Positions 34,118 through 51,155 of a DNA stretch of 51,197 bases are shown here, piece after piece. The stretch is taken from contig CATEYX010000022.1 in NCBI GenBank assembly GCA_949511925.1, positions 1-51,197 of the forward strand, written 5' to 3'. The position numbers were made by a program, and so were the translations under genes. This DNA comes from Cryomorphaceae bacterium (GTDB lineage: Bacteria; Bacteroidota; Bacteroidia; Flavobacteriales; BACL11). Numbering within the stretch: the first letter of the stretch is position 1; the number at the start of each line of letters is the position of its first letter. The notes below the pieces were generated by a model. It was not told where the DNA came from, made no database searches, and saw only the letters and a list, made by a program, of their open reading frames with translations.

Positions 34118-35572
34118 CTAACTACGAAAATCAAAATAAATATGTTTTATTTCTTTAAAAAAGATTAAAGCATAAAAGCAATATAATAATATCGGGAATA
34201 GAAAGTAGTGAAACATTTTAAAATCTAATTCATGAGTCATTCCTAAATACAAAAATGGTGCACTAACTAAAACAAGCAAGTAAAGAGGCATACTAAAAGG
34301 ATGTATATTCAGCTTAATATTTATTATTATGATTCTATAGATTTCAGTAAGTAAACTAAAAATAACAAATAACAATACAACAGCTAATAATTTATACTCT
34401 GTTATAAATAGAATTGCTAATACATTAATAAAGAGAACCTTAAAGAATTGTAGTTTTAGTTCGTATTTCTCTAAATTTGCCATTGTTAAAATATTTCCAG
34501 CCCCACCAACTAATAACCTAAATATCCTTCCAAACATAATAATATATAAATAAGGAGCATATTTAACTAAACCACCAGTATCATCATATAAGTAGAGTAT
34601 ATCTTTAGAAAAAATTATAATACTAATAATAAAAGGTGCGGCTAGTAAATTTATAATAAATGTAGTCTTTTTAAATAGAATCTCCAATTCACTAATCCTA
34701 TTCTCACTAAATAACTTGCTTATTGCAGGAGCAAATATTGTATTTAAATTATTTATTAAAAATAAGGTTACTCCAGATATCGATAATAATATACTATATA
34801 CACCAATATAAATCGTAGGTAACATAAAACTAAGTATTAAAGATAATGATTGCCCAGCAAAAAAAGTAACTAATGAAATTGTATACATTTTCTTTGCATA
34901 GCTTGTTATCTCAGAATCTATCTTAAAATCTATATCCTTCTCTACAAAAACAATTGAAAATACATTCTTATTAAAGAAATAAAACAATAATGATAATGAA
35001 ACAAATGATGTAAACATTTCAATACCAATAAAATACAGAACATTATCAGTGTATATGAAAATAAAATAGGTGAGCACTGCTCGTAAGGGAACAATAATAA
35101 AAGTACCATACAACATTATTTCTTTAATCTTAAACGCAGATCGATATAAAGAAATAATAATTCCCATCAAAATTGAGATAGGAACGTTAATTGATGTTAC
35201 TAATAAAAATAAAGAGAAGTTATTAATTTCTTTATATAAATAAACATCTAATACTGGAGCTAAAAAATAGATGATTACAAGAAACACAAAAGATATTACC
35301 AAAGAGTAATTAATAATCTTTCTTATAAGTTGTTTTGCAGACTTAAGATCAGCATCAATATACTGTGGAATATACTTGACAATAACCCATGGGATACCAA
35401 AAGAGATAATAGTACTCATAGCACCAGAGAATGTGAGAGCAGAAACATATTTTCCCCATTGTTCAATTCCAATAATATCAATAAGATATATCTTAATAAA
35501 AAAGCCTATAACAAAACCAAAAATAGAGCCTGCAATCCCCCAATTTGCTTGTTTAATTATTAAATTTATCAT
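34118..35572 (-). CDS. wzx: Wzx-type oligosaccharide flippase (MOP superfamily)
   Basis: 484 aa with about 12-14 TM helices. It is the last gene of the polysaccharide operon. Confidence 0.7.
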   Translation of the reverse strand: MINLIIKQANWGIAGSIFGFVIGFFIKIYLIDIIGIEQWGKYVSALTFSGAMSTIISFGIPWVIVKYIPQYIDADLKSAKQLIRKIINYSLVISFVFLVIIYFLAPVLDVYLYKEINNFSLFLLVTSINVPISILMGIIISLYRSAFKIKEIMLYGTFIIVPLRAVLTYFIFIYTDNVLYFIGIEMFTSFVSLSLLFYFFNKNVFSIVFVEKDIDFKIDSEITSYAKKMYTISLVTFFAGQSLSLILSFMLPTIYIGVYSILLSISGVTLFLINNLNTIFAPAISKLFSENRISELEILFKKTTFIINLLAAPFIISIIIFSKDILYLYDDTGGLVKYAPYLYIIMFGRIFRLLVGGAGNILTMANLEKYELKLQFFKVLFINVLAILFITEYKLLAVVLLFVIFSLLTEIYRIIIINIKLNIHPFSMPLYLLVLVSAPFLYLGMTHELDFKMFHYFLFPILLYCFYALIFFKEIKHIYFDFRS

Positions 35573-35599
35573 ATATGACTATTTATTATATTGGATGAA

Positions 35600-36742
35600 T
35601 CAGTTAATATCAGTAAAAAACGAATAATTCATAAATTCTTTAATTGTATTCTTAATATCATACTTCTCATCAAAAGGAAAGCTTCTTTTCTTCTTATATT
35701 CACCAAGTATTTTCTCTTTTAATGAACTTGGTGACTTTTCATCAGCTAACAAATTATTAATTTCATAATCAGGAATAAGTTCTGATATTCCTTGACATTT
35801 AATTGCAATAAAGGGAGTATTGGTAGACCAGGACTCTAAGTAAACGCAACCTAAAGCTTCATAATAAGAAGGCAATACAAATAAATCAATCTCATTATAA
35901 AAGCTATTAATCAAATTATGTGCTCTCTCTTTTTCAAAAATTACGAATTCTGATAAATTATGATCTTTCACAAATTTCTTACACAAGTCTAATTTTTTTC
36001 CTGTACCAATCAATTTTAGCTGAATATCATTTATCCCATCTAAAATTAATAATTCAATTGCTTTTATTAGAGTTATTTGATCTTTTATTTCCCAAAAGTT
36101 TGCAACACTTCCAATAGTAAAAGATCTATTTACATCACCTTTAATAGGATAAAATTTTGATGTATCCACTCCATTATACAAAACAAGTTCATCTTTTGGA
36201 GAATAAGATGGGTATTCTCTCAGTTGACTTAAAACTAGTTCTGACACTCCAATATTCAAATCTGAATGATTTAGTTGTCTGATTGTATTTCTAATTAAAT
36301 AATTCTTTTGTAATTTCATAATAAAATTACTCCTTCCATTTAATAATTGAAGTACATCAAGTCCATGATGTTGCACTATTTTTTTACAATCTAAAATATT
36401 TTGCAAGTATGATGCCGGATAAGAAACATGTGCATGAGAAATTATAATATCATTTATCTTTTTATTTTTTAAGAAGGATTTAAACCTATTTGTATTTAAT
36501 TCGTTAAAAATTCCTGGAGAAATAAACCACGGTAAATCCATTACTCTAAATATCATAATTTCAAAACCTTCAAATTTATAATCCTTTTCAACTGAAAAAG
36601 CAGAAACTAATTTAATGACTTTAATATTGAAATCACTTTGATTTCTAATTTCATTTATTTGATCAAAAATATAACTACCAACAAAAGAATTTTTAGAAGG
36701 AAAAAATGGAGTAATTACTAAGTATGTTTTTTTATTGTCCAT
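35600..36742 (-). CDS. Family 4 (GT-B) glycosyltransferase
   Basis: 380 aa. E-x7-E region LPSYYEALGCVYLESWS. Confidence 0.75.
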   Translation of the reverse strand: MDNKKTYLVITPFFPSKNSFVGSYIFDQINEIRNQSDFNIKVIKLVSAFSVEKDYKFEGFEIMIFRVMDLPWFISPGIFNELNTNRFKSFLKNKKINDIIISHAHVSYPASYLQNILDCKKIVQHHGLDVLQLLNGRSNFIMKLQKNYLIRNTIRQLNHSDLNIGVSELVLSQLREYPSYSPKDELVLYNGVDTSKFYPIKGDVNRSFTIGSVANFWEIKDQITLIKAIELLILDGINDIQLKLIGTGKKLDLCKKFVKDHNLSEFVIFEKERAHNLINSFYNEIDLFVLPSYYEALGCVYLESWSTNTPFIAIKCQGISELIPDYEINNLLADEKSPSSLKEKILGEYKKKRSFPFDEKYDIKNTIKEFMNYSFFTDIN

Positions 36743-37769
36743 TATGCAAATTTACAATTACTTTTTCCCAATCAATAATAATATTTTTCCAGTCAAATCT
36801 TTTAGCTAATTTAACAGCATTTTCAGATGACTTCTGAAGAGATACTGAATCATTAAGTAGCTCATTAATAATACTCTTCACCTCATTAAAATCATTTGCA
36901 ATAAAGCCATTAATTCTATGCTTCATCCATTTAGAAGCACCATAAGAATTATAAACTACTGAAGGAATTCCAGCTGAAGCAGCTTCCAAAATTACCTTAG
37001 GAAATCCCTCAGATTTTGAAGGAAGAAACATTATATCTGATTGCTGGAATATTGCATCTATTTTATCCTGTGATAACTCTCCATGAAAAACTACATTAGA
37101 ACTAGCATTTTTTTCTAAATTATCTCTCTCAGGACCATTACCAATTATATTAAAATTAATTTGAGGATAAAATTTAGCTAATAGTAAAAATTCATCTATC
37201 CTTTTCCTTTTTATTAATCCTCCTACAAAAACAATTGATCTTAAATTTTGAGCAATTTTTGAGTTAAATTGATGAACATTCACACCTAACAATAAAGGAA
37301 TATTATTGATGGATATTACTGATTGAGTTTCTTGGATTAGAAATCTAGTAATACCAAAAACTTGCTTAAAATAACTAAAATGATTTTTCATGTTATTTTC
37401 TGACCCAAATAAAGCAATTAGATTAGGTTTACTTAAATCAGTTACATTTCCTTCAATAGTAGTAAAAACTGGCTTTTTGAGTAGTTTTGCTAACTTTAAC
37501 ACCCAAAGTGGAGTATCAACATGTTTAGGAAAATACGCTACATCACTATTGAGCATTCCCCATAAAAAGCCTAAATGCTTTGAAAAACTAAAAGGCTTTA
37601 AGCATTTGAAGGTATTTGCCTCAAAACTCTCACTTCTGCCAAAATGTGTAGTTAAGGCTAATACTTCAAATTTATCTTTATCCAAATACTCTGCAACTGC
37701 TCTACAATTTAAATTCTGAGCATTGGTATAATTAATATATCCACCAAGAAATACTTTTATTTTACTCAT
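36732..37769 (-). CDS. Family 4 (GT-B) glycosyltransferase
   Basis: 345 aa. E-x7-E region LPSKSEGFPKVILEAASAGIP. It overlaps both neighbouring genes. Confidence 0.75.
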   Translation of the reverse strand: MSKIKVFLGGYINYTNAQNLNCRAVAEYLDKDKFEVLALTTHFGRSESFEANTFKCLKPFSFSKHLGFLWGMLNSDVAYFPKHVDTPLWVLKLAKLLKKPVFTTIEGNVTDLSKPNLIALFGSENNMKNHFSYFKQVFGITRFLIQETQSVISINNIPLLLGVNVHQFNSKIAQNLRSIVFVGGLIKRKRIDEFLLLAKFYPQINFNIIGNGPERDNLEKNASSNVVFHGELSQDKIDAIFQQSDIMFLPSKSEGFPKVILEAASAGIPSVVYNSYGASKWMKHRINGFIANDFNEVKSIINELLNDSVSLQKSSENAVKLAKRFDWKNIIIDWEKVIVNLHNGQ

Positions 37770-38896
37770 TTTAATAAATTTAAAAATTTTTGTTCATTAA
37801 AAGGAAAGTAAAAAGCAATTGCCCAATCTTTAATGATTTTTGATTTTTCTTGATAAAATTCAATTGAATCCAACTCGTCAATTAAAATATTAAGAGGGTA
37901 ATCAAATTCATTTTGAAAATAATTAAACTCATTTTCAGAAGCAAGTAAAATTGTAGGAATCCCTAATAAAGCAGCCTCAAAAGTGGATGTCGAATAAGTA
38001 GTAGCATGCAAACTACATAATCTTAAGCATTCATTAATGTCAACAGTGGCAATCATAACATTGGATAATTTTAATAATTCTGACAAATCAACTTCATTAT
38101 TAAACCTAGGATGGTGCTTTAGGTAAAAATTAACATCCACATGAATTGATAAAATAAACTCCCTTAATTCTTTTAATAAAATTGCATTCTCTTTTACAGT
38201 ATGATCATGTGTGAATTGTAAAGTAATAAGGATATTCTTATTAAATTCTTTATGGATAGTACTTTTATAAGATATATTACTACCAATTACTAAAGTGTGA
38301 TTTTTAAAATAATCTAATTTTTCATTTATTTCTAATATCTTTTGGTAAGATTCTCCACATAACAATAAGTTAGCATCGTTGACAACTAAATTACTTTCTG
38401 CTATACCATTTACTAAATAATTCTTTTTATTGTTGTGAATAATACCATGCTGAAGATCATACAACATCACAGAAGGGTTAATTCCCCTAAAAACACTAAG
38501 CATGCTTTGCGATAGAGTTATAAAATTTTTGAAATGAAACTGTCTAAAAAATACTTTAGCAATAGAACTGCCAATTTTCTGATCTTTTAATTGAGTATTC
38601 ATCTCAGAACTAAATAGTTTACGCAAAAGAATAACTACTAGATAAATAAAATCAAATGGAGTAGTCTTTGAATTTCTAATACTTTTAATTGTAAAATCAG
38701 GCTCTTCAAACACAACATATGAGATACTATTTCTATCACAACTTAGCAAGAGATGTTTAAAAAGCTGATTTTCTTTATTTTCTCCTCTGTTAAAATGCTG
38801 AGGATAATAAAAAACAACATCATATTTTCTTTTTATTAGTATACCTGAAAGAAAAAAAAACATTGACTTTATAATATATAGAAAATTTCTAAACAT
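37766..38896 (-). CDS. Uncharacterised GT-B-like transferase (candidate nonulosonic-acid or glycerophosphate-type transferase)
   Basis: 376 aa with an N-terminal hydrophobic segment. LKHHPRF (HHPR at 38105-38116) followed by HATTYSTSTFEAALLGIPTILL recalls the HP / S-S-T motifs of bacterial sialyltransferases and TagF-like enzymes. I recognise no confident family. Confidence 0.4.
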   Translation of the reverse strand: MFRNFLYIIKSMFFFLSGILIKRKYDVVFYYPQHFNRGENKENQLFKHLLLSCDRNSISYVVFEEPDFTIKSIRNSKTTPFDFIYLVVILLRKLFSSEMNTQLKDQKIGSSIAKVFFRQFHFKNFITLSQSMLSVFRGINPSVMLYDLQHGIIHNNKKNYLVNGIAESNLVVNDANLLLCGESYQKILEINEKLDYFKNHTLVIGSNISYKSTIHKEFNKNILITLQFTHDHTVKENAILLKELREFILSIHVDVNFYLKHHPRFNNEVDLSELLKLSNVMIATVDINECLRLCSLHATTYSTSTFEAALLGIPTILLASENEFNYFQNEFDYPLNILIDELDSIEFYQEKSKIIKDWAIAFYFPFNEQKFLNLLK

Positions 38897-40294
38897 TTAT
38901 TTTAATAAATTTTGACTTTGCTTAGTATGAGAATAATTATCGCCAATATGAATAATAATATCATGAAAATAATTATCTAATTTTTCTTTATAAGATTCTC
39001 TAATTTGCTTTTTTAAAGTTTCAACTTCTTCAGATATAAGCTGCCCATTTCCTTTTTTTCTAAATCTAGGTTCGAGAATTTCTATTTTGATAACTCTAAT
39101 ATCTTTTGGGTAGACAGACATTCCCTTAATTTTTAAATCAACTTTCCAATCCTTAATATCATCAATTTTATATAAAGCCTTAATGTAAGTATTGAATTCA
39201 GGGATATCTTTATAATCTGCAGATGAATATACAGTATATTGTTCTTTAATAAATTTCTCAATTTCATCAAAATATTGAGATACAGGCGGCCATAATACAA
39301 TTTCAAAATACAATTGATTACTAATCAAAATTTGTTGTTTTCTCTGTTGGATTAAATCCAATTCCTCAGTTGAAAAATTATTACTTTTAAACCAACTTAT
39401 ACCATATGGAGAGTGATCAAGTTTATTATTAATTTTTATAGCAATGAAAGGCTCATTAAAATACAATGCACATGCTAAGCGGTGTGCTCCATCTACTATG
39501 TGCAAATCTTTATTTACTAGTATTGGATAATTACTATCAACTCCATTATTATTAAAACTTGTAATTAACTCTTTAAAAACCTTCAAAGGATTAGTGTGAG
39601 CTGACCCTCCTCTATTCTTTTGCATCTTCTCATACAGATTAATCCCTTCATTTTCATAATTCAAAAAGGAATCAATTGCCATATAGCGAACAATTATGTC
39701 ATATCGATTAAATCTATGGTCAACAACTTGTTTTGCTAGCAGGCTAGAAGTTGGTATCATTTGAAATGCATCACTATGCAAACTAGTATCATATCTAAAA
39801 TAATTTTTTAGATAATTGAGATACAAGCTAAATCTATTTTGGAGTTTTCTGAAAATATTTTTTAAAAATGATGGCTTTGGTAATTCATGCTCGATTAACT
39901 TCCAGTTCCAATTTTTATACATTTTTGCATACTCATTCAATTCAATAATATCTGATTGATCCTTAATTCTATTGTGCCATTTTTTTTTATGATAAATAAG
40001 TTCAGGAATTACAAATTTGAAACCATTGTATAAAATATATAAATCTGAGTTTTCAATCAAATTATCATCTGAAAACAAGGAAGACCATGGGTTATTTACC
40101 CTTTCAATAAATGAATGTTGAGAAAGTGAGTTTGAAGCATATTTAGAATGAATTACAATATCAATATCATTATGTTTTCGAATACCAATTAAAGATAAAG
40201 TTGTACTTCCTACTAAACAAATATCTTCTTTTGAAATTTCATTTAATTTCAGGTATTTTTCAAGAGATTTAAAATCCTTATCATCAAAATCCAT
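38897..40294 (-). CDS. Uncharacterised three-module protein: minimal nucleotidyltransferase fold + ParB/sulfiredoxin-like module + unknown C-terminal domain
   Basis: 465 aa. Pol-beta NTase signature hG[GS]-x12-DhD in LVGSTTLSLIGIRKHNDIDIVI (40154-40210). ParB/Srx-type motif IVDGAHRLACALY (DGAHR at 39479-39493). I do not recognise the C-terminal ~140 aa. Confidence 0.45.
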   Translation of the reverse strand: MDFDDKDFKSLEKYLKLNEISKEDICLVGSTTLSLIGIRKHNDIDIVIHSKYASNSLSQHSFIERVNNPWSSLFSDDNLIENSDLYILYNGFKFVIPELIYHKKKWHNRIKDQSDIIELNEYAKMYKNWNWKLIEHELPKPSFLKNIFRKLQNRFSLYLNYLKNYFRYDTSLHSDAFQMIPTSSLLAKQVVDHRFNRYDIIVRYMAIDSFLNYENEGINLYEKMQKNRGGSAHTNPLKVFKELITSFNNNGVDSNYPILVNKDLHIVDGAHRLACALYFNEPFIAIKINNKLDHSPYGISWFKSNNFSTEELDLIQQRKQQILISNQLYFEIVLWPPVSQYFDEIEKFIKEQYTVYSSADYKDIPEFNTYIKALYKIDDIKDWKVDLKIKGMSVYPKDIRVIKIEILEPRFRKKGNGQLISEEVETLKKQIRESYKEKLDNYFHDIIIHIGDNYSHTKQSQNLLK

Positions 40295-41433
40295 TAGGAA
40301 AGAAACAATTCCACAAACTCTCTTACCACTCCATCACCACCATTTCTTTTTAATTGCATAATGTTTGGAATAGCTTTAATTTTATCAACTGCATTATTAG
40401 GGCAAGCGGCAATTCCTACATGAGATAAAAGACCAAAACAATTTACATCATCTCCTATATAAGCAACTTCAGCAAGAGTGATATTTTCTTTTACGCATAA
40501 ATCTTTAACTATCTGTAATTTATCCTTTGCACCATGAAAATCAAAATCCAAACCTAATTTCTTAGCTCTTCTTCTGTTTAGCTCTCTATCTTCTGTAGTT
40601 AATATCCCTACTTTTACTCCTGTTTTCTGCAAGAGCTGAAAACCCATTCCGTCATAAGTACAGAACTTTTTAAACTCATCTCCTTGTTCAGTATAGTACA
40701 TTCCTGCATCTGTAAGCACTCCATCTACATCAGATAAAAATAATTTAATATTAGAAAAATCTAACTCTTCATTTTTTAAAACAAAACGTTTCATCAATGA
40801 TTCAGCAACTATCCAATCTTCTGGCTCATCAATTTCAATATAAGTATATTCTGGCATCTCATAAATTCCGATATCTGCTGAAATTCTATTCTTCGTTGAT
40901 TTTATATCAGCAACAGAGCTGATATAAAAAGCGCCATTTTCTATTAATGTCCCTTTGTGATCTTGTCTTCTTGGTCGGTTATAAATATCATAATTTAATG
41001 CTTTTCCGTTTCTCCAAGAAAACCTTTTAGATTCACAACAAGTTAGAATAGTATCATGTTGTTTAAACAACTCTAAGCCCTCATTAAAATGAATGCTTTG
41101 CGTAAAAGGTGAAGTTGCTTGCACCAACATAAAAGTATCTTCATTGGAAATATTTGAACTATCTATATATTCCAGCATAACTGATTCAGTAGAAGATACG
41201 TCTTGAGCATTTTCCTTACTTCTATTATACACTTTTAACTTTGAAAAATTAAATGAGTTTACGATTGACTTAATTTCATTAGAATCTGTGGCAACAATAA
41301 TTTCATCTACATCTGAATTTTGTAGTTCTTGTAAATTCCAAAATATTAATGGTTTTCCACAAAAAACTTTAATGTTCTTTTGTAAAATAGACTTGCTTCC
41401 TCCTCTGGCTGGTATAAAAGCAATTATGCTCAT
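40294..41433 (-). CDS. neuA: Bifunctional CMP-nonulosonate synthetase (NeuA-type cytidylyltransferase) fused to KdsC-type HAD phosphatase
   Basis: 379 aa. N-terminal domain has IPARGGSKSILQKN and NRPRRQD. C-terminal domain has HAD motif I LSDVDGVLTD, KDK, and motif IV YIGDDVNCFGLL. Confidence 0.8.
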   Translation of the reverse strand: MSIIAFIPARGGSKSILQKNIKVFCGKPLIFWNLQELQNSDVDEIIVATDSNEIKSIVNSFNFSKLKVYNRSKENAQDVSSTESVMLEYIDSSNISNEDTFMLVQATSPFTQSIHFNEGLELFKQHDTILTCCESKRFSWRNGKALNYDIYNRPRRQDHKGTLIENGAFYISSVADIKSTKNRISADIGIYEMPEYTYIEIDEPEDWIVAESLMKRFVLKNEELDFSNIKLFLSDVDGVLTDAGMYYTEQGDEFKKFCTYDGMGFQLLQKTGVKVGILTTEDRELNRRRAKKLGLDFDFHGAKDKLQIVKDLCVKENITLAEVAYIGDDVNCFGLLSHVGIAACPNNAVDKIKAIPNIMQLKRNGGDGVVREFVELFLS

Positions 41434-42308
41434 TATTGTTTTCTGTATTTTAGTTTATCTCTTTGTACTTGTTCAATTGCTAAGACATCCGACTGCTTAC
41501 ATGTAAGAGCTTTATGTGTAGCCTTTAAATCTCTAGCTAATTTTCTTAATCCAGCAGGCTCTAAAGAAGCAGAATGATCTGTTCCTTTCCAAGTTCTATC
41601 TAAAGTAAAATGACGTTCCACCCAATTGGCTCCTAAAGCATAAGCAGCAATGTCTACTGCTATTCCCAAATGATGCCCTGAGAATCCAATTGTTTTTACT
41701 CTATCATTAAATTTTTCCTTTATTCTTAAAATTTCTAGCATACAAACATCCTCAAAAGGAACAGGATAAGCTGAAGTACAAGAATATAACACTAATCTTT
41801 TTGCCTGATTATTTTTTTCAAAAAATGAAACAATCTCTTCTTCTTCATCCTTTGTTGTCATCCCAAAAGAAATATGCACTTCACCTTGATAGTCATCTCT
41901 TAAAACTTTAAGCATTTCATAATGATTATTACAAGCAGAAGGTACTTTTATTAATTTAGGATTAAGAGAAGTAATCTGTTTTGCAGAAGTAGTATCCCAA
42001 ACAGAAGTAGAATAAATAATTCCTAAGCTTTCAGCATATTCTTTAAGTTCTTTATGTTGACTAACATCAAACTCTAAAAATTCTCTATGCGCACCATAAC
42101 TATCTCCATAGGAGTTTATAGGGTTAGGGTGAGGAGCATTATACTGATACTCAGTCAATAATTCTACATTATTTCTTTTTTGAAATTTAGCAACTTCAAC
42201 TCCACTTTCTGCAGCTACTTTCAATAAGTGTTTTGCTATCTCCATTTCTCCTTTATGATTGCAACCAATTTCTGCAATCACTTTTGGAGTTTCATAATAA
42301 CTTTTCAT
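41433..42308 (-). CDS. neuB: NeuB-family nonulosonate (sialic-acid/KDN-type) synthase lacking the C-terminal SAF domain
   Basis: 291 aa. NeuB TIM-barrel motifs VIAEIGCNHKGEMEIAKHLL, VAKFQKR, IKVPSACNNH and VERHFTLDR. It ends before where a SAF/antifreeze-like domain would sit. Confidence 0.75.
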   Translation of the reverse strand: MKSYYETPKVIAEIGCNHKGEMEIAKHLLKVAAESGVEVAKFQKRNNVELLTEYQYNAPHPNPINSYGDSYGAHREFLEFDVSQHKELKEYAESLGIIYSTSVWDTTSAKQITSLNPKLIKVPSACNNHYEMLKVLRDDYQGEVHISFGMTTKDEEEEIVSFFEKNNQAKRLVLYSCTSAYPVPFEDVCMLEILRIKEKFNDRVKTIGFSGHHLGIAVDIAAYALGANWVERHFTLDRTWKGTDHSASLEPAGLRKLARDLKATHKALTCKQSDVLAIEQVQRDKLKYRKQ

Positions 42309-44678
42309 TTAATCTTTTTTTAGCTTTTCATTATCATCAAAATACTCTGAGCCTTGAGTATATCCATATTTATTTCCATAACCGTAGCCATAACCGTAGC
42401 CATAACCGTAGCCATAGCCATAACCATAAGCACCACTACCCTCTTTTACATCATTAAAAATAAGGTGTATGTCTCCTAATCTTTCTTTACCATACATGTC
42501 ATCAGCATATGACAGTAGACCTTTTCTAGAATAATTCTGTCTTGCTACATATAGGTTAATATCTGAATAATCCATTAAGGTTAATGCGTCAGCAACCAAT
42601 CCTAAAGGAGGGGTGTCTAAAACAATAATATCATAGCTTTCTTTTAAGGCCTTTATCATCTTTCCAAACTTATCACTCAATAGAGCATCAGATGGATTAT
42701 TTGGTACAGGTCCTGAAACCAAAATATCTAAATTTTCAATGTCAGATTGTACAATTACATCACTTAATGACTTATCACCAAGAATATGGTTAGAAATCCC
42801 AATTTCATTTGTAAGTCCAAAATCAACATACATCCTTGGCCTTCTTAAATCACACCCTATTACTATAGTTTTTTTACCAGATTTTGCAAATACTATAGCT
42901 AAGTTTTGAGCGATATAGGTTTTACCTTCTCCACTTATTGATGAAGTAACTAAATATACTTTCTTATTATTTTCTGGATTGAAGAAATTTAAATTAGACC
43001 GCAAAGCTCTAAACCCTTCAAAGACAGCAGATTTAGGATTTTGTTGAGATAGTAAGATATTACCACTATGATTACTACCAATTATACTTAAAATAGGAAT
43101 AGACGTAGCCTTTTCCAAATCAGCTCTATTAAGTATCTTTTCGTTTATCAACTCCTTAATTAAAAGTATAATCATAGGCAACATTAAACCAATAAGTAAT
43201 GCAATTATATAATTTTTTGTTTTATCAGGGTCAACAGGTTTTTTAGAGAAATACATAGCAGGCTCTAGCGCTTTACTATCAGAAATATTAGAAGAAGATG
43301 TTATTTTTGCTTCCGCTCTCTTTTGTAATAAGAAAATATAGATGTTTTCAGAAATAGACTGTAAACGCTCAATACTTAACAGTTCTCTTTCAACTTTTGG
43401 AATATCTCCTAATGAAGTTTCCATTTTATTAATCCTATTTTTAAAATCCTTAATAAGCAAATTATTAGTTGACTTACTTAAATTAATTGCTTTTTTAAGA
43501 TTAAGTACTAATTGCTTAACTTGACGATTATATTGTGATACTGAAGGATTATTAATTTGCCCACCATCAACTAAAACATTCTTTTTAACTTGTAATTCAA
43601 CTAATTGATTTATAATCGAGTTCAAGCCAATATCATTAACTCCAAATGAAGTAGAAACACTAATACTTTCTAAATTATCTCCATCATTAATATAATTTTC
43701 AAGATAAGTATAGTAATTACTAAGACTTTTACTTTTTGCTAACTCTGTATCTACATTAACAATATTAGCATAAATACTTTGCGCCCTTAAACTTAAATCA
43801 GTAATCTTATTATTATTCTTATATTCTTGAATATTCATTTCAATAAGTGACAATGAATCACTCATTTCCTTCAACTGACTATTTATAAAAGAAACTGTGT
43901 TATTAGATGCTATATTTTTTTCTCTTAGCTCACTATTGATATAATTTTCAGTTAATTTGTTTAAGAATTTAACTCCTTTTATTTGATCCTCTTCCAGTAT
44001 TGATATATCTATCACTGTTGAATTAACATCCTTTTGTGAAATTAAAATCTTCTTTTGATATTCAAGAGTAAGTCTTTTTAAATCCCTAAATTCAATAACC
44101 GTATTGGGCATATCAATACTATTTTCAGAATATCTACTATCTAAATCAACTATAATCATTGTCGAATAAAAATCAATCTCTTCTCCAAAATTATGATTTT
44201 CTTGTTTATTATTATCATCATAAATAATTGTATATTGATTATCATTAATATATTCAATAGTAATATTCTTTCCAATTACTTTAGTTATATCATTACATCT
44301 TATTTTAAATGGAGCAATAAAGGATTCAGACTCTTTTATAGTTCCAACAATATAGTAATTAATCTCAAAACCTAAATCAGATAATGTCGAATAAACTAAA
44401 GGATAAGATTTTAGCATTAATACCTTGTTCTCTATGCTTACATTACTACTTCCCATTGCTTTTTCATACAATAAATCGGATGCAGAACCCATTGAATTAT
44501 TTTCCTTTATGAGAATAGAGGTTTCTACCAAATATAGTTCCTTAGTATATCTATTATATAGATAAGCTAAAGCAAAAGTCAAAAACAAACTTAGAACAAA
44601 AAAGAACCAATTATTAATTATCTTGAAAACAAATTGCCTAAAATCTATTATCTCATCAAGTTGATTATTAATACTCAT
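42309..44678 (-). CDS. wzc: Wzc-type polysaccharide co-polymerase / tyrosine autokinase with (YG)9 tail
   Basis: 789 aa. Wzz-like N-terminus with TM helices, a coiled-coil region, Walker A SSISGEGKTYIAQNLA, Walker B IIVLDTPP, and C-terminal AYGYGYGYGYGYGYGYGYGNKYGY. Confidence 0.85.
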   Translation of the reverse strand: MSINNQLDEIIDFRQFVFKIINNWFFFVLSLFLTFALAYLYNRYTKELYLVETSILIKENNSMGSASDLLYEKAMGSSNVSIENKVLMLKSYPLVYSTLSDLGFEINYYIVGTIKESESFIAPFKIRCNDITKVIGKNITIEYINDNQYTIIYDDNNKQENHNFGEEIDFYSTMIIVDLDSRYSENSIDMPNTVIEFRDLKRLTLEYQKKILISQKDVNSTVIDISILEEDQIKGVKFLNKLTENYINSELREKNIASNNTVSFINSQLKEMSDSLSLIEMNIQEYKNNNKITDLSLRAQSIYANIVNVDTELAKSKSLSNYYTYLENYINDGDNLESISVSTSFGVNDIGLNSIINQLVELQVKKNVLVDGGQINNPSVSQYNRQVKQLVLNLKKAINLSKSTNNLLIKDFKNRINKMETSLGDIPKVERELLSIERLQSISENIYIFLLQKRAEAKITSSSNISDSKALEPAMYFSKKPVDPDKTKNYIIALLIGLMLPMIILLIKELINEKILNRADLEKATSIPILSIIGSNHSGNILLSQQNPKSAVFEGFRALRSNLNFFNPENNKKVYLVTSSISGEGKTYIAQNLAIVFAKSGKKTIVIGCDLRRPRMYVDFGLTNEIGISNHILGDKSLSDVIVQSDIENLDILVSGPVPNNPSDALLSDKFGKMIKALKESYDIIVLDTPPLGLVADALTLMDYSDINLYVARQNYSRKGLLSYADDMYGKERLGDIHLIFNDVKEGSGAYGYGYGYGYGYGYGYGYGNKYGYTQGSEYFDDNEKLKKD
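42375..42428 (-). repeat. Coding microsatellite encoding (Tyr-Gly)9
   Basis: Nine consecutive hexamers (tccata accgta gccata ...), including three perfect 12-bp tandem units accgtagccata at 42381-42416. Confidence 0.95.
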
Positions 44679-44680
44679 AC

Positions 44681-45451
44681 TTAGTTATTGTTGATTAATA
44701 GATAAAGTGTTATTGCTGATATTGACATAGAAATCAAGTTTGGTAAACTAGAAAATGAATAAAATCTTTTATTTAATTGAGGCACATAAATCACATCATT
44801 TGGTTGCAACATAAAATTAGGATTGTTTAATGTTTTTATATCAGTTAAATCAACATAAAAAATCCTATTTGCATCATTATCATTTCTAAGAATTTTTATT
44901 TTCTTCAGGTTACCAAACTCTGTCATATAATTTGCTAGACTTAAAGCATATAAAACATTTGCCTCAGGATTAACTACCATGTAATTTCCAGGATTATTTA
45001 CTGCACCCAAGACACTTATCTCAAAATTAATTATATTTAATTTCACTATTGGTTTTTCAAAATAGGAAATTGCAATTTGCCTAATAATATTCTCTAACTC
45101 TCTTAATGTAAATCCTTCAGATTTTATTTTTCCTAAAGAAGGTAAGTCCAAAAAACCACCCTCTTTAATTAGATATCCATACAAGTATGGATTCTGCACC
45201 ATTAAATTTGAATTAGAAGTTTGTTCCTTATTAAAAAAATCGTGTTGTTGATTGGTAACTGTGCTAATTTGTACTGATATTAAATCACCAACTTGTAAGA
45301 GGTACTTATTAGTATTTAACTTTGCTTTTGATACATCCTTAGATGTTCTGAAATATTCAAAATCCTTATTTGTAACACAGGATGAAAAGAAAAAGAGTAG
45401 TACTAAAAGTAATACTACGAATTTTGATTCTACAAAAAAAAATTTATTCAT
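44681..45451 (-). CDS. wza: Wza-type polysaccharide export outer-membrane protein
   Basis: 256 aa. Lipoprotein-like signal LLVLLFFFSSC, Poly_export motif YLLQVGDLISVQI, and an SLBB-like segment. First gene of the operon. Confidence 0.75.
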   Translation of the reverse strand: MNKFFFVESKFVVLLLVLLFFFSSCVTNKDFEYFRTSKDVSKAKLNTNKYLLQVGDLISVQISTVTNQQHDFFNKEQTSNSNLMVQNPYLYGYLIKEGGFLDLPSLGKIKSEGFTLRELENIIRQIAISYFEKPIVKLNIINFEISVLGAVNNPGNYMVVNPEANVLYALSLANYMTEFGNLKKIKILRNDNDANRIFYVDLTDIKTLNNPNFMLQPNDVIYVPQLNKRFYSFSSLPNLISMSISAITLYLLINNN

Positions 45452-50934: not shown

Positions 50935-51017
50935 TGCCCAGAGCGGGACTCGAACCCGCACGTCTATAAGACACATGACCCTCAATCATGCCTGTCTACC
51001 AATTTCAGCACCTGGGC
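50935..51017 (-). tRNA. tRNA-Leu (anticodon GAG), class II with long variable arm
   Basis: Reverse complement GCCCAGG-TG-CTG-AAATTGGTAGA-CAG-G-CATGA-TTGAGGG-TCATG-TGTCTTATAGACGT-GCGGG-TTCGAGT-CCCGC-TCTGGGC-A folds as a cloverleaf. 83 nt; 3' CCA not encoded. Confidence 0.9.
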
Positions 51018-51028
51018 AAAGTACTATG

Positions 51029-51036
51029 CAAAAATA
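51029..51036 (-). promoter_or_regulatory. -7 promoter box TATTTTTG (minus strand) for tRNA-Leu
   Basis: The plus strand reads caaaaata. It lies 11 nt upstream of the mature tRNA-Leu 5' end and just downstream of the hairpin terminator. Confidence 0.3.
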
Positions 51037-51039
51037 CAT

Positions 51040-51074
51040 AAAAAAAGAATCCCGCTATTAAACGGGATTTTTTT
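51040..51074. terminator. Bidirectional rho-independent terminator between the two tRNA genes
   Basis: Stem aatcccg / cgggatt with an 8-nt loop, flanked by an A7 run on one side and a T7 run on the other. Confidence 0.65.
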
Positions 51075-51079
51075 AGTCT

Positions 51080-51155
51080 TGGTGACCTGGCTGGGGCTCG
51101 AACCCAGGACCCCCTCATTAAAAGTGAGGTGCTCTACCAGCTGAGCTACCAGGTC
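51080..51155 (-). tRNA. tRNA-Lys (anticodon UUU), CCA encoded
   Basis: Reverse complement GACCTGG-TA-GCTC-AGCTGGTA-GAGC-A-CCTCA-CTTTTAA-TGAGG-GGGTC-CTGGG-TTCGAGC-CCCAG-CCAGGTC-A-CCA. 76 nt canonical cloverleaf. Confidence 0.93.

Follow-up and report, generated by a model that had tools for sequence, protein, structure and literature searches.

The question raised by the sugar operon on contig CATEYX010000022.1 of a Cryomorphaceae bacterium (GenBank assembly GCA_949511925.1) is what a protein of 465 amino acids (aa) does between the enzyme that activates a nonulosonic acid with cytidine monophosphate (CMP) and the candidate transferase that would use the product. The stretch of DNA that was analysed, referred to below as the window, comprises positions 1 to 51,197 of this contig (51,197 nucleotides). 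The gene is a complete open reading frame (ORF) of 465 codons plus stop codon on the minus strand (38897..40294), the strand that carries all other features of the window described here as well. Its start ATG overlaps the stop of the upstream neuA::HAD gene (TAATG) and its TAA immediately abuts the ATG of the downstream gene for a 376-aa transferase; the gene is translationally coupled with both. According to the structural model the protein is built from three nucleotide-handling folds, and the family to which it belongs is genomically tied to the CMP-nonulosonate synthetase. Our tentative answer is that the protein acts as an accessory tailoring enzyme on the nonulosonic acid or its CMP-activated form, the sugar in this operon being putatively 3-deoxy-D-glycero-D-galacto-nonulosonic acid (Kdn).

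The AlphaFold2 model of the full-length protein, based on a 63-sequence alignment, has a predicted local distance difference test score (pLDDT) of 90.1 and a predicted template-modelling score of 0.78, and a separate model of aa 1-325 reached a pLDDT of 90.6. A linker with a long helix (aa 143-167) separates the first two modules and is of lower confidence (aa 141-175, 39770..39874; pLDDT 63-73). Searches at the sequence level gave little: a Pfam scan of the protein yielded nothing above threshold, with NTP_transf_2 as the only sub-threshold family, an NCBIfam scan gave no meaningful match, and a comparison of the full protein and the family profiles with the sequences in the PDB returned only spurious matches (E 0.1 to 7). 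The combination of domains is unprecedented; each of them resembles a known fold and none passes the thresholds of a sequence family. A chance ORF was considered and rejected in view of the size and conservation of the family and of the confident model.

The second module (aa ~176-326, 39317..39769), recognised by Foldseek, a hidden Markov model (HMM) and conservation, resembles the ParB-CTPase/sulfiredoxin fold. It carries the sequence DGAHR (aa 268-272, 39479..39493), in which G269-A-H-R272 agrees with the Box II definition of the GxxR phosphate-binding P motif, the element that contacts the nucleotide phosphates in the ParB-CTPase fold (PMC12704722). A DGxHR sequence arises in 0.075% of composition-preserving shuffles of the protein, and Y221, R228, G251, G269, H271, R272 and A274 are conserved in at least 95% of 71 homologous modules. 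With the model of aa 1-325, Foldseek returned no match at E<=1e-3, and its list consists almost wholly of ParB/sulfiredoxin and nucleotidyltransferase (NTase) folds. The former, with E-values from 0.037 (PadC) to ~1, include pNOB8 ParB-N, the sulfiredoxins of plants and humans, Noc, KorB and complexes of ParB with CDP or CTPgammaS; the entry 5k5d_B has E=0.055 (probability 1.0), and the full-length model matches it too (E=3.2e-3). These matches lend modest support to a ParB/sulfiredoxin fold for this part of the model. Pfam ParB_N (PF02195) has no match in the protein and matches one of the 63 family members (E=0.011). The nucleotide specificity of ParB-CTPase folds is unpredictable from sequence or from AlphaFold models (PMC12704722). 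A function as DNA-partition ParB was rejected on the basis of the lack of a helix-turn-helix (HTH) domain, the lack of a ParA and the location in a sugar operon.

The first module (aa 1-140, 39875..40294), recognised from Pfam matches across the family, Foldseek and conservation, resembles NTases of the polymerase-beta type. A motif scan located the NTase signature VGS-x12-DID at aa 28-48 (40151..40213; VGSTTLSLIGIRKHNDIDIVI), with G29, S30, D43 and D45 as the signature residues and I44 between the two acids. It arises in 0.47% of the shuffles, and the positions conserved in at least 95% of 20 homologous modules are G29, S30, R39, D43, D45, K104, K111, D112 and D115. The protein itself stays below the Pfam threshold for every NTase family (NTP_transf_2: E=0.035, 14.9 bits against a cut-off of 21), and NTP_transf_2 matches 12 of the 63 family members, with a best E-value of 4.1e-5. 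Foldseek (aa 1-325) found TM1012 (2ewr; E=0.041, probability 0.98, template-modelling (TM) score 0.48-0.50 over 160 columns), and its other NTase-fold matches are JHP933 and viral poly(A) polymerases. An NTase fold is thus modestly supported by the model. Stand-alone homologues of the module showed only sub-threshold Pfam matches, to DUF2204 and DUF6036, which are NTase families of unknown function.

The third domain (aa ~327-465, 38900..39316) has no Pfam or NCBIfam match, and neither the Pfam NDK model nor the PDB sequence and profile searches detected sequence homology to nucleoside-diphosphate kinases (NDKs). Its predicted structure has an NDK-like fold, as shown by the NDKs among the Foldseek matches in both the PDB and BFVD. 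In the PDB, 49 of the 50 top matches of the full model were NDKs, with the mimivirus enzyme as the best (E=3.2e-4, probability 1.00); TM scores were 0.5-0.68, the best ones reaching 0.64-0.68 when normalised to the Foldseek target, over ~140 columns. The NDK or NDK-like proteins of phages and giant viruses in BFVD matched with TM scores of 0.61-0.68. The elements of the domain follow in the order beta1, alpha1, beta2, alphaA, alpha2, beta3, alpha3, beta4, alpha4, the order of the NDK topology with its ferredoxin-like core and alpha-A/alpha-2 hairpin. The invariant residues are W335, Y375, K388, K428, R432, Y442, D445, H449 and D452, the last three of these within DIIIHIGDN (aa 445-453, 38936..38962). 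H449 is located on the last beta-strand, in H-I-G-D; NDK carries its phospho-histidine on the last strand (beta-4), in H-G-S-D. The best BFVD matches of the full model were giant-virus proteins annotated "glycosyltransferase" (A0A5K0UAL1 of Yasminevirus, A0A1V0SAX2 of Catovirus and A0A481Z0W0 of Mimivirus LCMiAC01; E=6e-6 to 2e-5 over 175-232 columns, the matched region not being reported). Their E-values are better than any obtained in the PDB searches.

Much of what a first-pass annotation of this DNA had proposed for the protein could be retained. The ORF is real and both of its motifs are conserved over the family, although the NTase signature had been placed one residue too early (aa 27-47). 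The assignments of the first two modules to the NTase and ParB/sulfiredoxin folds held up to a modest degree. The statement that aa ~325-465 are unassignable applies to Pfam and NCBIfam but not to Foldseek, which puts the region in the NDK fold. The structure prediction that it had advised for each module led, with Foldseek, to the three folds, none of which passes the threshold of a sequence family.

The family is large and unnamed, and neither Pfam nor NCBIfam has a model for it. A word-indexed search found 116 homologues, none with a name or a Pfam domain, and an exhaustive search with profiles yielded 3,825 representative clusters (50% identity) at E<=1e-3, 2,191 at 1e-10 and 644 at 1e-30. 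The earlier remark that no such fusion was known is therefore right as far as names in the literature go, but the proteins are widespread. Over 75 loci, HMM detection found the ParB-like module in 72, the NDK-like domain in 59 and the N-terminal NTase-like module (N module) in ~20, which makes the ParB-like module the constant core. In the marine Flavobacteriales group the N module forms the N terminus; other lineages have it at the C terminus or in an adjacent gene of its own. Both fused and free-standing NDK-like domains are seen, and proteins of only the ParB-like and NDK-like parts also exist, for instance in Winogradskyella sp. R77965 and Seonamhaeicola sp. MEBiC1930 (L029, L031). In locus L006 (8956-10996) a gene for N module plus NDK-like domain lies next to one for ParB-like plus NDK-like domain, and therefore the NDK-like domain pairs with either partner. 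Since the modules are fused in either order or encoded by adjoining separate genes, they are functionally coupled. Variants of 500 aa carry a C-terminal extension of ~185 aa with KDLDIIC...DY...QFDIS, in which a further NTase is only suspected; hhalign aligned it with the N module over the DxD region at no better than E=0.022.

The family is also fused to other enzymes. In P0197 the family module is joined to the CMP-nonulosonate synthetase domain itself (CTP_transf_3), and in P0125 to a full Maf nonulosonate transferase (Maf fusions also in P0083 and P0112); some fusions join the ParB-like module to the N-terminal domain of Maf alone. Class-I S-adenosylmethionine-dependent methyltransferases are the partners in P0149, P0150, P0115 and in proteins of loci L046, L051, L053 and L056, and this combination with the ParB-like module occurs with or without the NDK-like domain.

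The genomic context was counted in species-representative genomes from many phyla, with one genome per species. The family was found in Bacteroidota, Campylobacterota, Cyanobacteria, Spirochaetota, Verrucomicrobiota, Alpha- and Gammaproteobacteria, many Clostridia and Bacilli, and one archaeon. Within 10 kb, 54 of the 68 loci have a NeuA-type synthetase, at a median gap of 20 bp and directly adjacent in 30; NeuB lies within the same distance in 49 of the 68 and a KdsC-like phosphatase in 37 loci. A BLAST-based count gave similar figures (56 of 71 loci for the NeuA-type synthetase and 54 of 71 for NeuB). The tie to the CMP-nonulosonate synthetase extends over many phyla, and close relatives retain the synteny of the window.

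Other lineages use cassettes of different composition. In gut Clostridia the cassette contains genes for a radical-SAM/SPASM enzyme, a NUDIX hydrolase, a NeuC-like epimerase, NeuB-SAF, the ParB-like protein, CTP_transf_3, a deacetylase and the NDK-like protein, and no phosphatase; in Bacilli it contains HAD, ParB-like, NeuB, CTP_transf_3 and NDK-like genes. A third type combines HAD::HMGL-like, ParB+NDK and CTP_transf_3, and in loci L007 and L043 it consists of these three genes only. Since the partner synthase varies (short NeuB, NeuB-SAF or HMGL-like), the common denominator of the cassettes is the CMP-activation step. Several of the loci are flagellin-glycosylation loci with Maf. In gut Clostridia and in Bacilli alike, the radical-SAM/SPASM and NUDIX genes recur beside those for the ParB-like and NDK-like proteins, NeuB and CTP_transf_3 (L065:6253-12545, L069:6092-10776), which hints at a larger conserved cassette. 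Our literature searches found no ParB-like or NDK-like proteins linked to nonulosonate loci, and a search of the literature on the KDN pathway found no mention of such a gene.

The reverse question, how often the synthetase occurs with the module, was answered with 80 loci gathered from relatives of the NeuA::HAD protein, 71 of which have NeuB alongside. The ParB/NDK module is present in only 5-6 of the 80 and missing from ~74, so that the survey of neuB/neuA::HAD loci that the first-pass annotation had recommended spoke against an obligatory partnership. Fifteen Flavobacteriales loci share the full order Wza-Wzc-NeuB-NeuA::HAD-[slot]-GT376-GT4-GT4-Wzx. Four of them have the target gene in the slot and 11 a gene for a 257-aa sulfotransferase (PF00685, E=3e-20; L080:11143-11916, with L082, L084-L086, L088, L089, L091-L093 and L150 carrying it there as well), while the NeuA::HAD of these 11 sister loci is 65-85% identical. 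The target is accessory and dispensable for the synthesis of the CMP-sugar. NeuB does not split by slot type (75-79% identity within a type against 76% between types), nor does NeuA::HAD; the two transferases adjoining the slot show ~50-53% identity within a slot type against ~45% between types. Because the sister loci hold a sulfotransferase in this position and other lineages fuse the ParB-like core to a methyltransferase, we read the position as a slot for sugar decoration. This suggests that sulfotransferase and target provide alternative anionic decorations of the same Kdn-containing polymer.

The tightly packed operon of the window has the order Wza, Wzc, NeuB (291 aa), CTP_transf_3::HAD (379 aa), target, 376-aa glycosyltransferase, GT4, GT4 and Wzx, with the neighbours that had been claimed for it: a short NeuB, the CTP_transf_3::HAD fusion and an orphan glycosyltransferase. 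The CMP-nonulosonate synthetase (CTP_transf_3; 40294..41433, by Pfam and NCBIfam) is fused to a HAD domain resembling KdsC and KDN-9-phosphate phosphatase, which reaches 172.7 bits with NF058599, the equivalog for KDN-9-P phosphatase, slightly under the cut-off of 180. The NeuB-family synthase of 291 aa (41433..42308, by Pfam) lacks the SAF domain. Because of this short NeuB and the phosphatase-like HAD, the locus is consistent with the Kdn-9-phosphate (Kdn-9-P) route, with a putative sugar identity. The 376-aa glycosyltransferase (37766..38896), a candidate nonulosonate transferase, has a weak NCBIfam match to the BFO_1060 family over its C-terminal half (E=1.9e-10). It is probably the Kdn transferase, since members of this family in Tannerella forsythia are transferases of pseudaminic (Pse) or legionaminic acid (Leg), as proven genetically (PMC5420450), and the transferase role in the operon is therefore already filled. 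A glycosyltransferase role of the target was rejected, as its model has no glycosyltransferase fold match and the adjoining gene is the likely transferase.

Some further features of the window may be mentioned. Wzc (42309-44678) ends in a long Tyr-rich (YG)n tail (GAYGYGYGYGYGYGYGYGNKYGY), an exceptionally regular version of the common autophosphorylation cluster. No gene for a Wzy polymerase can be seen in the operon (34118-45451), and the relatives L001 and L002 have Wzy_C, GT11 and methyl- or sulfotransferase genes downstream of Wzx. GC content is lower in the operon's variable part (23-28%) than in the flanking DNA (31-36%). Two tRNA genes (50935-51155), unrelated to the target, lie at the right end of the window.

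What, then, might the three folds do together? The reading that we prefer, while giving it somewhat less than even odds, is that the protein is an accessory nucleotide-dependent tailoring enzyme that acts on Kdn or CMP-Kdn, probably by phosphoryl transfer. It is suggested by the methyltransferase fusions, by the sulfotransferase in the same slot and by the general finding that decorations are already present on the CMP-sugar, as is the case for many nonulosonate decorations in C. jejuni and other bacteria (bioRxiv 10.64898/2026.04.20.719630). Because of the tight linkage and the fusion to the CMP-synthetase, the evidence points to an action on the sugar or nucleotide-sugar rather than on the polymer; the earlier proposal of a nucleotide-dependent decorating enzyme suits the context better than the sugar kinase proposed with it, except that it had the polymer as substrate. 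In the proposed mechanism, the invariant GxHR of the ParB/sulfiredoxin-like core would hold the phosphate of a cytidine nucleotide, which may be the CMP handle of CMP-Kdn, or of an NTP donor. His449 of the NDK-like domain would accept a phosphoryl group from an NTP and hand it on to the sugar or sugar-nucleotide. With its intact catalytic set, the NTase module might add or exchange a nucleotidyl or phosphodiester group, and the modified Kdn would then be moved by the downstream BFO_1060-like transferase. The chemistry would depend on the partner domain: methyl groups would be transferred in the methyltransferase fusions, phosphoryl groups in the NDK-like fusions.

Several points weigh against this reading. 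The family has no characterised member and the assignment of the substrate is purely inferred. To our knowledge, phosphorylated or nucleotidylated forms of Kdn or of other nonulosonates have not been reported, and ParB-CTPase-fold proteins are usually switches rather than catalysts acting on small molecules. The equivalence of H449 with the catalytic His of NDK follows from the order of the secondary-structure elements rather than from a superposition. Trp335 appears to occupy the position of the NDK Lys (K11 in E. coli Ndk), and the NDK likeness is structural only: an hhalign comparison of the third domain with E. coli Ndk gave a non-significant probability of ~0.1%, in a colinear alignment that places Y375 opposite Ndk Y51 and R432 opposite R104. 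As to the slot, the co-variation of the adjoining transferases with its content is small and could stem from linkage, and its sharing with a sulfotransferase might only mark a hot spot for insertions at the junction of the operon's conserved and variable halves. The survey of CMP-sugars cited above reported no phosphorylated or nucleotidylated nonulosonate (bioRxiv 10.64898/2026.04.20.719630).

The main rival, serious although we would give it only about one chance in four or five, is a recycling of CMP to CTP, in which the ParB/sulfiredoxin-like domain makes CDP from the CMP released by the transferase and the NDK-like domain converts this CDP into CTP for the adjoining synthetase, a natural version of the CTP-regeneration cycle of chemoenzymatic sialylation. 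Two phosphotransfer-type domains would then serve two phosphorylation steps, and it is in line with this that the nearest neighbour, at a median gap of 20 bp, is the CTP-consuming synthetase, that P0197 is a fusion to CTP_transf_3 and P0125 one to the Maf transferase, which releases CMP, and that the module accompanies short NeuB, NeuB-SAF and HMGL-like synthases, which have only the CMP step in common. The non-significant hhalign pairs just mentioned involve nucleotide-site residues of Ndk and invariant residues of the family, and an optional presence would suit a flux booster. ParB-fold proteins also commonly bind CTP, as does one SerK-like member (PMC12704722). However, recycling gives no role to the NTase module despite its conserved catalytic set, and leaves unexplained the ParB-like plus methyltransferase proteins that lack the NDK-like domain as well as locus L006, where one of two NDK-like domains is paired with the NTase module. 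Moreover, the housekeeping enzymes Cmk and Ndk already convert CMP to CTP, and we know of no nucleoside-monophosphate kinase activity for the ParB/sulfiredoxin fold. An NTP-gated switch or scaffold seems less probable still. Here the ParB-like domain would bind or hydrolyse CTP or ATP in order to dimerise, and would thereby control the synthetase, tailoring and transferase enzymes or bring them together, with the NDK-like domain, an oligomerising fold, as the platform and with no chemical group added to the sugar. Such a role would match the promiscuous fusion of the ParB-like core to methyltransferase, Maf, CTP_transf_3, NTase and NDK-like domains, and the characterised ParB-CTPase folds, which are nucleotide-dependent switches with many enzymatic fusion partners (PMC12704722), but the invariant polar residues Y375, K388, K428, R432, D445, H449 and D452 look like ligand or catalytic residues rather than an interface, and the complete NTase catalytic set is conserved as well.

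Two further proposals, the second of which was the leading idea of the first-pass annotation, do not fare well. A polymer phosphotransferase of the LicD/fukutin type, whose NTase module would move a phospho-substituent from a CDP-activated donor made or bound by the other two domains, is improbable. The NTase fold has GS...DID followed by S-x-Y, which is loosely LicD-like, the extension of the 500-aa variants described above could be counted in its favour, and locus L004 has LicD and a cytidylyltransferase nearby; yet Pfam LicD (PF04991) has no match at E<=1 in the target or in any of the 63 members, the NTase module is present in only ~20 of 75 loci against a constant ParB-like core, and the operon of the window encodes no donor-synthesis genes for a CDP-activated phospho-substituent. 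Least probable is a hexose-6-phosphate kinase that supplies mannose 6-phosphate or N-acetylmannosamine 6-phosphate to the 9-phosphate synthase. The locus of the window does appear to follow a 9-phosphate route (short NeuB plus KDN-9-P-phosphatase-like HAD), the archaeal serine kinase SerK is a small-molecule kinase with the ParB/sulfiredoxin fold, and L007 and L043 have just three genes, the ParB+NDK gene together with HAD::HMGL-like and CTP_transf_3. The distribution of the gene largely refutes the idea, however. The pathway genes are conserved without the target in ~74 of the 80 NeuB/NeuA::HAD loci, among them the 11 syntenic sister loci, and the module occurs in phosphatase-free cassettes of NeuC, NeuB-SAF and NeuA, where no sugar phosphate is needed; therefore a hexose-6-phosphate kinase does not fit. 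The fusions are to methyltransferase, Maf and CTP_transf_3, none to the synthase, and mannose 6-phosphate is a central metabolite.

A family of this size, unnamed and genetically welded to the CMP-activation step over many phyla, is of interest for the biology of nonulosonic acids (sialic, Kdn, legionaminic and pseudaminic), which shape the contact of capsules and flagella with hosts and phages and whose decorations decide antigenicity. The NDK-like fold with a conserved His turns an "unknown" domain into a concrete biochemical hypothesis, and either outcome, a new decoration or a built-in module for CTP regeneration, would be new for glycobiology and for the ParB-CTPase field. A wider proposition, for which we would wager less than for tailoring as such, is that sugar metabolism recruited the ParB-CTPase fold to read the cytidine-phosphate handle and that this fold forms, with the NDK-like phospho-histidine domain, a new enzyme class, either for a novel phosphate- or nucleotide-derived decoration of CMP-activated sialic-acid-like sugars or for a dedicated salvage from CMP via CDP to CTP, in thousands of bacterial and archaeal lineages. 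If so, the class would include the flagellin-glycosylation loci of gut Lachnospiraceae, and in the case of salvage the loop would be hard-wired to CMP-sugar synthetases and Maf transferases.

Each module can be compared with known systems. With TM1012/DUF2204, JHP933, AbiEii (DUF1814) and LicD the N module shares the hG[GS]-x12-DhDh motif, and it has a probable third acid (D76). Downstream it has a K...K-D-x-x-D helix motif (K104, K111, D112, D115), which resembles the NTP-binding motif of the DUF1814 clade. In contrast to minimal NTases such as those of the AbiEii type, it is part of a sugar operon and lacks a toxin-antitoxin context. The third domain shares with Ndk/NME the fold, an invariant His on the last strand followed by x-G-D, an invariant Tyr in alpha-A and invariant basic residues, whereas the segment between beta-3 and alpha-3 is rearranged and, in this family, the domain invariably goes together with ParB-like or NTase modules.

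The ParB-like module has, according to Foldseek, the fold of ParB, Noc, KorB, PadC, sulfiredoxin and SerK, with a GxxR motif that is invariant in the family. Its DGAHR is close to the GCHR of sulfiredoxin, the Cys being replaced by Ala270. Unlike partition ParB, it has neither an HTH or other DNA-binding domain nor a ParA or parS context. Like other non-canonical ParB-CTPase-fold proteins, it is fused to enzymatic partners, although the 2025 survey of this fold, when searched by terms, gave no NTase, NDK, NeuB, sialic-acid or polysaccharide partners (PMC12704722).

The known enzymes that tailor nonulosonates or Kdo (3-deoxy-D-manno-octulosonic acid) have entirely different folds. They include the Kdo kinase KdkA, a methyltransferase encoded between the CMP-Leg genes and a transferase in T. 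forsythia UB4, the sulfotransferase of the sister loci and, for comparison, the O-methyl phosphoramidate (MeOPN) pathway of Campylobacter, which uses a phospho-histidine kinase and a cytidylyltransferase. The target gene likewise takes a position between the CMP-sugar genes and the transferase, and, as with these tailoring enzymes, its product is optional, strain-variable and predicted to be nucleotide-dependent.

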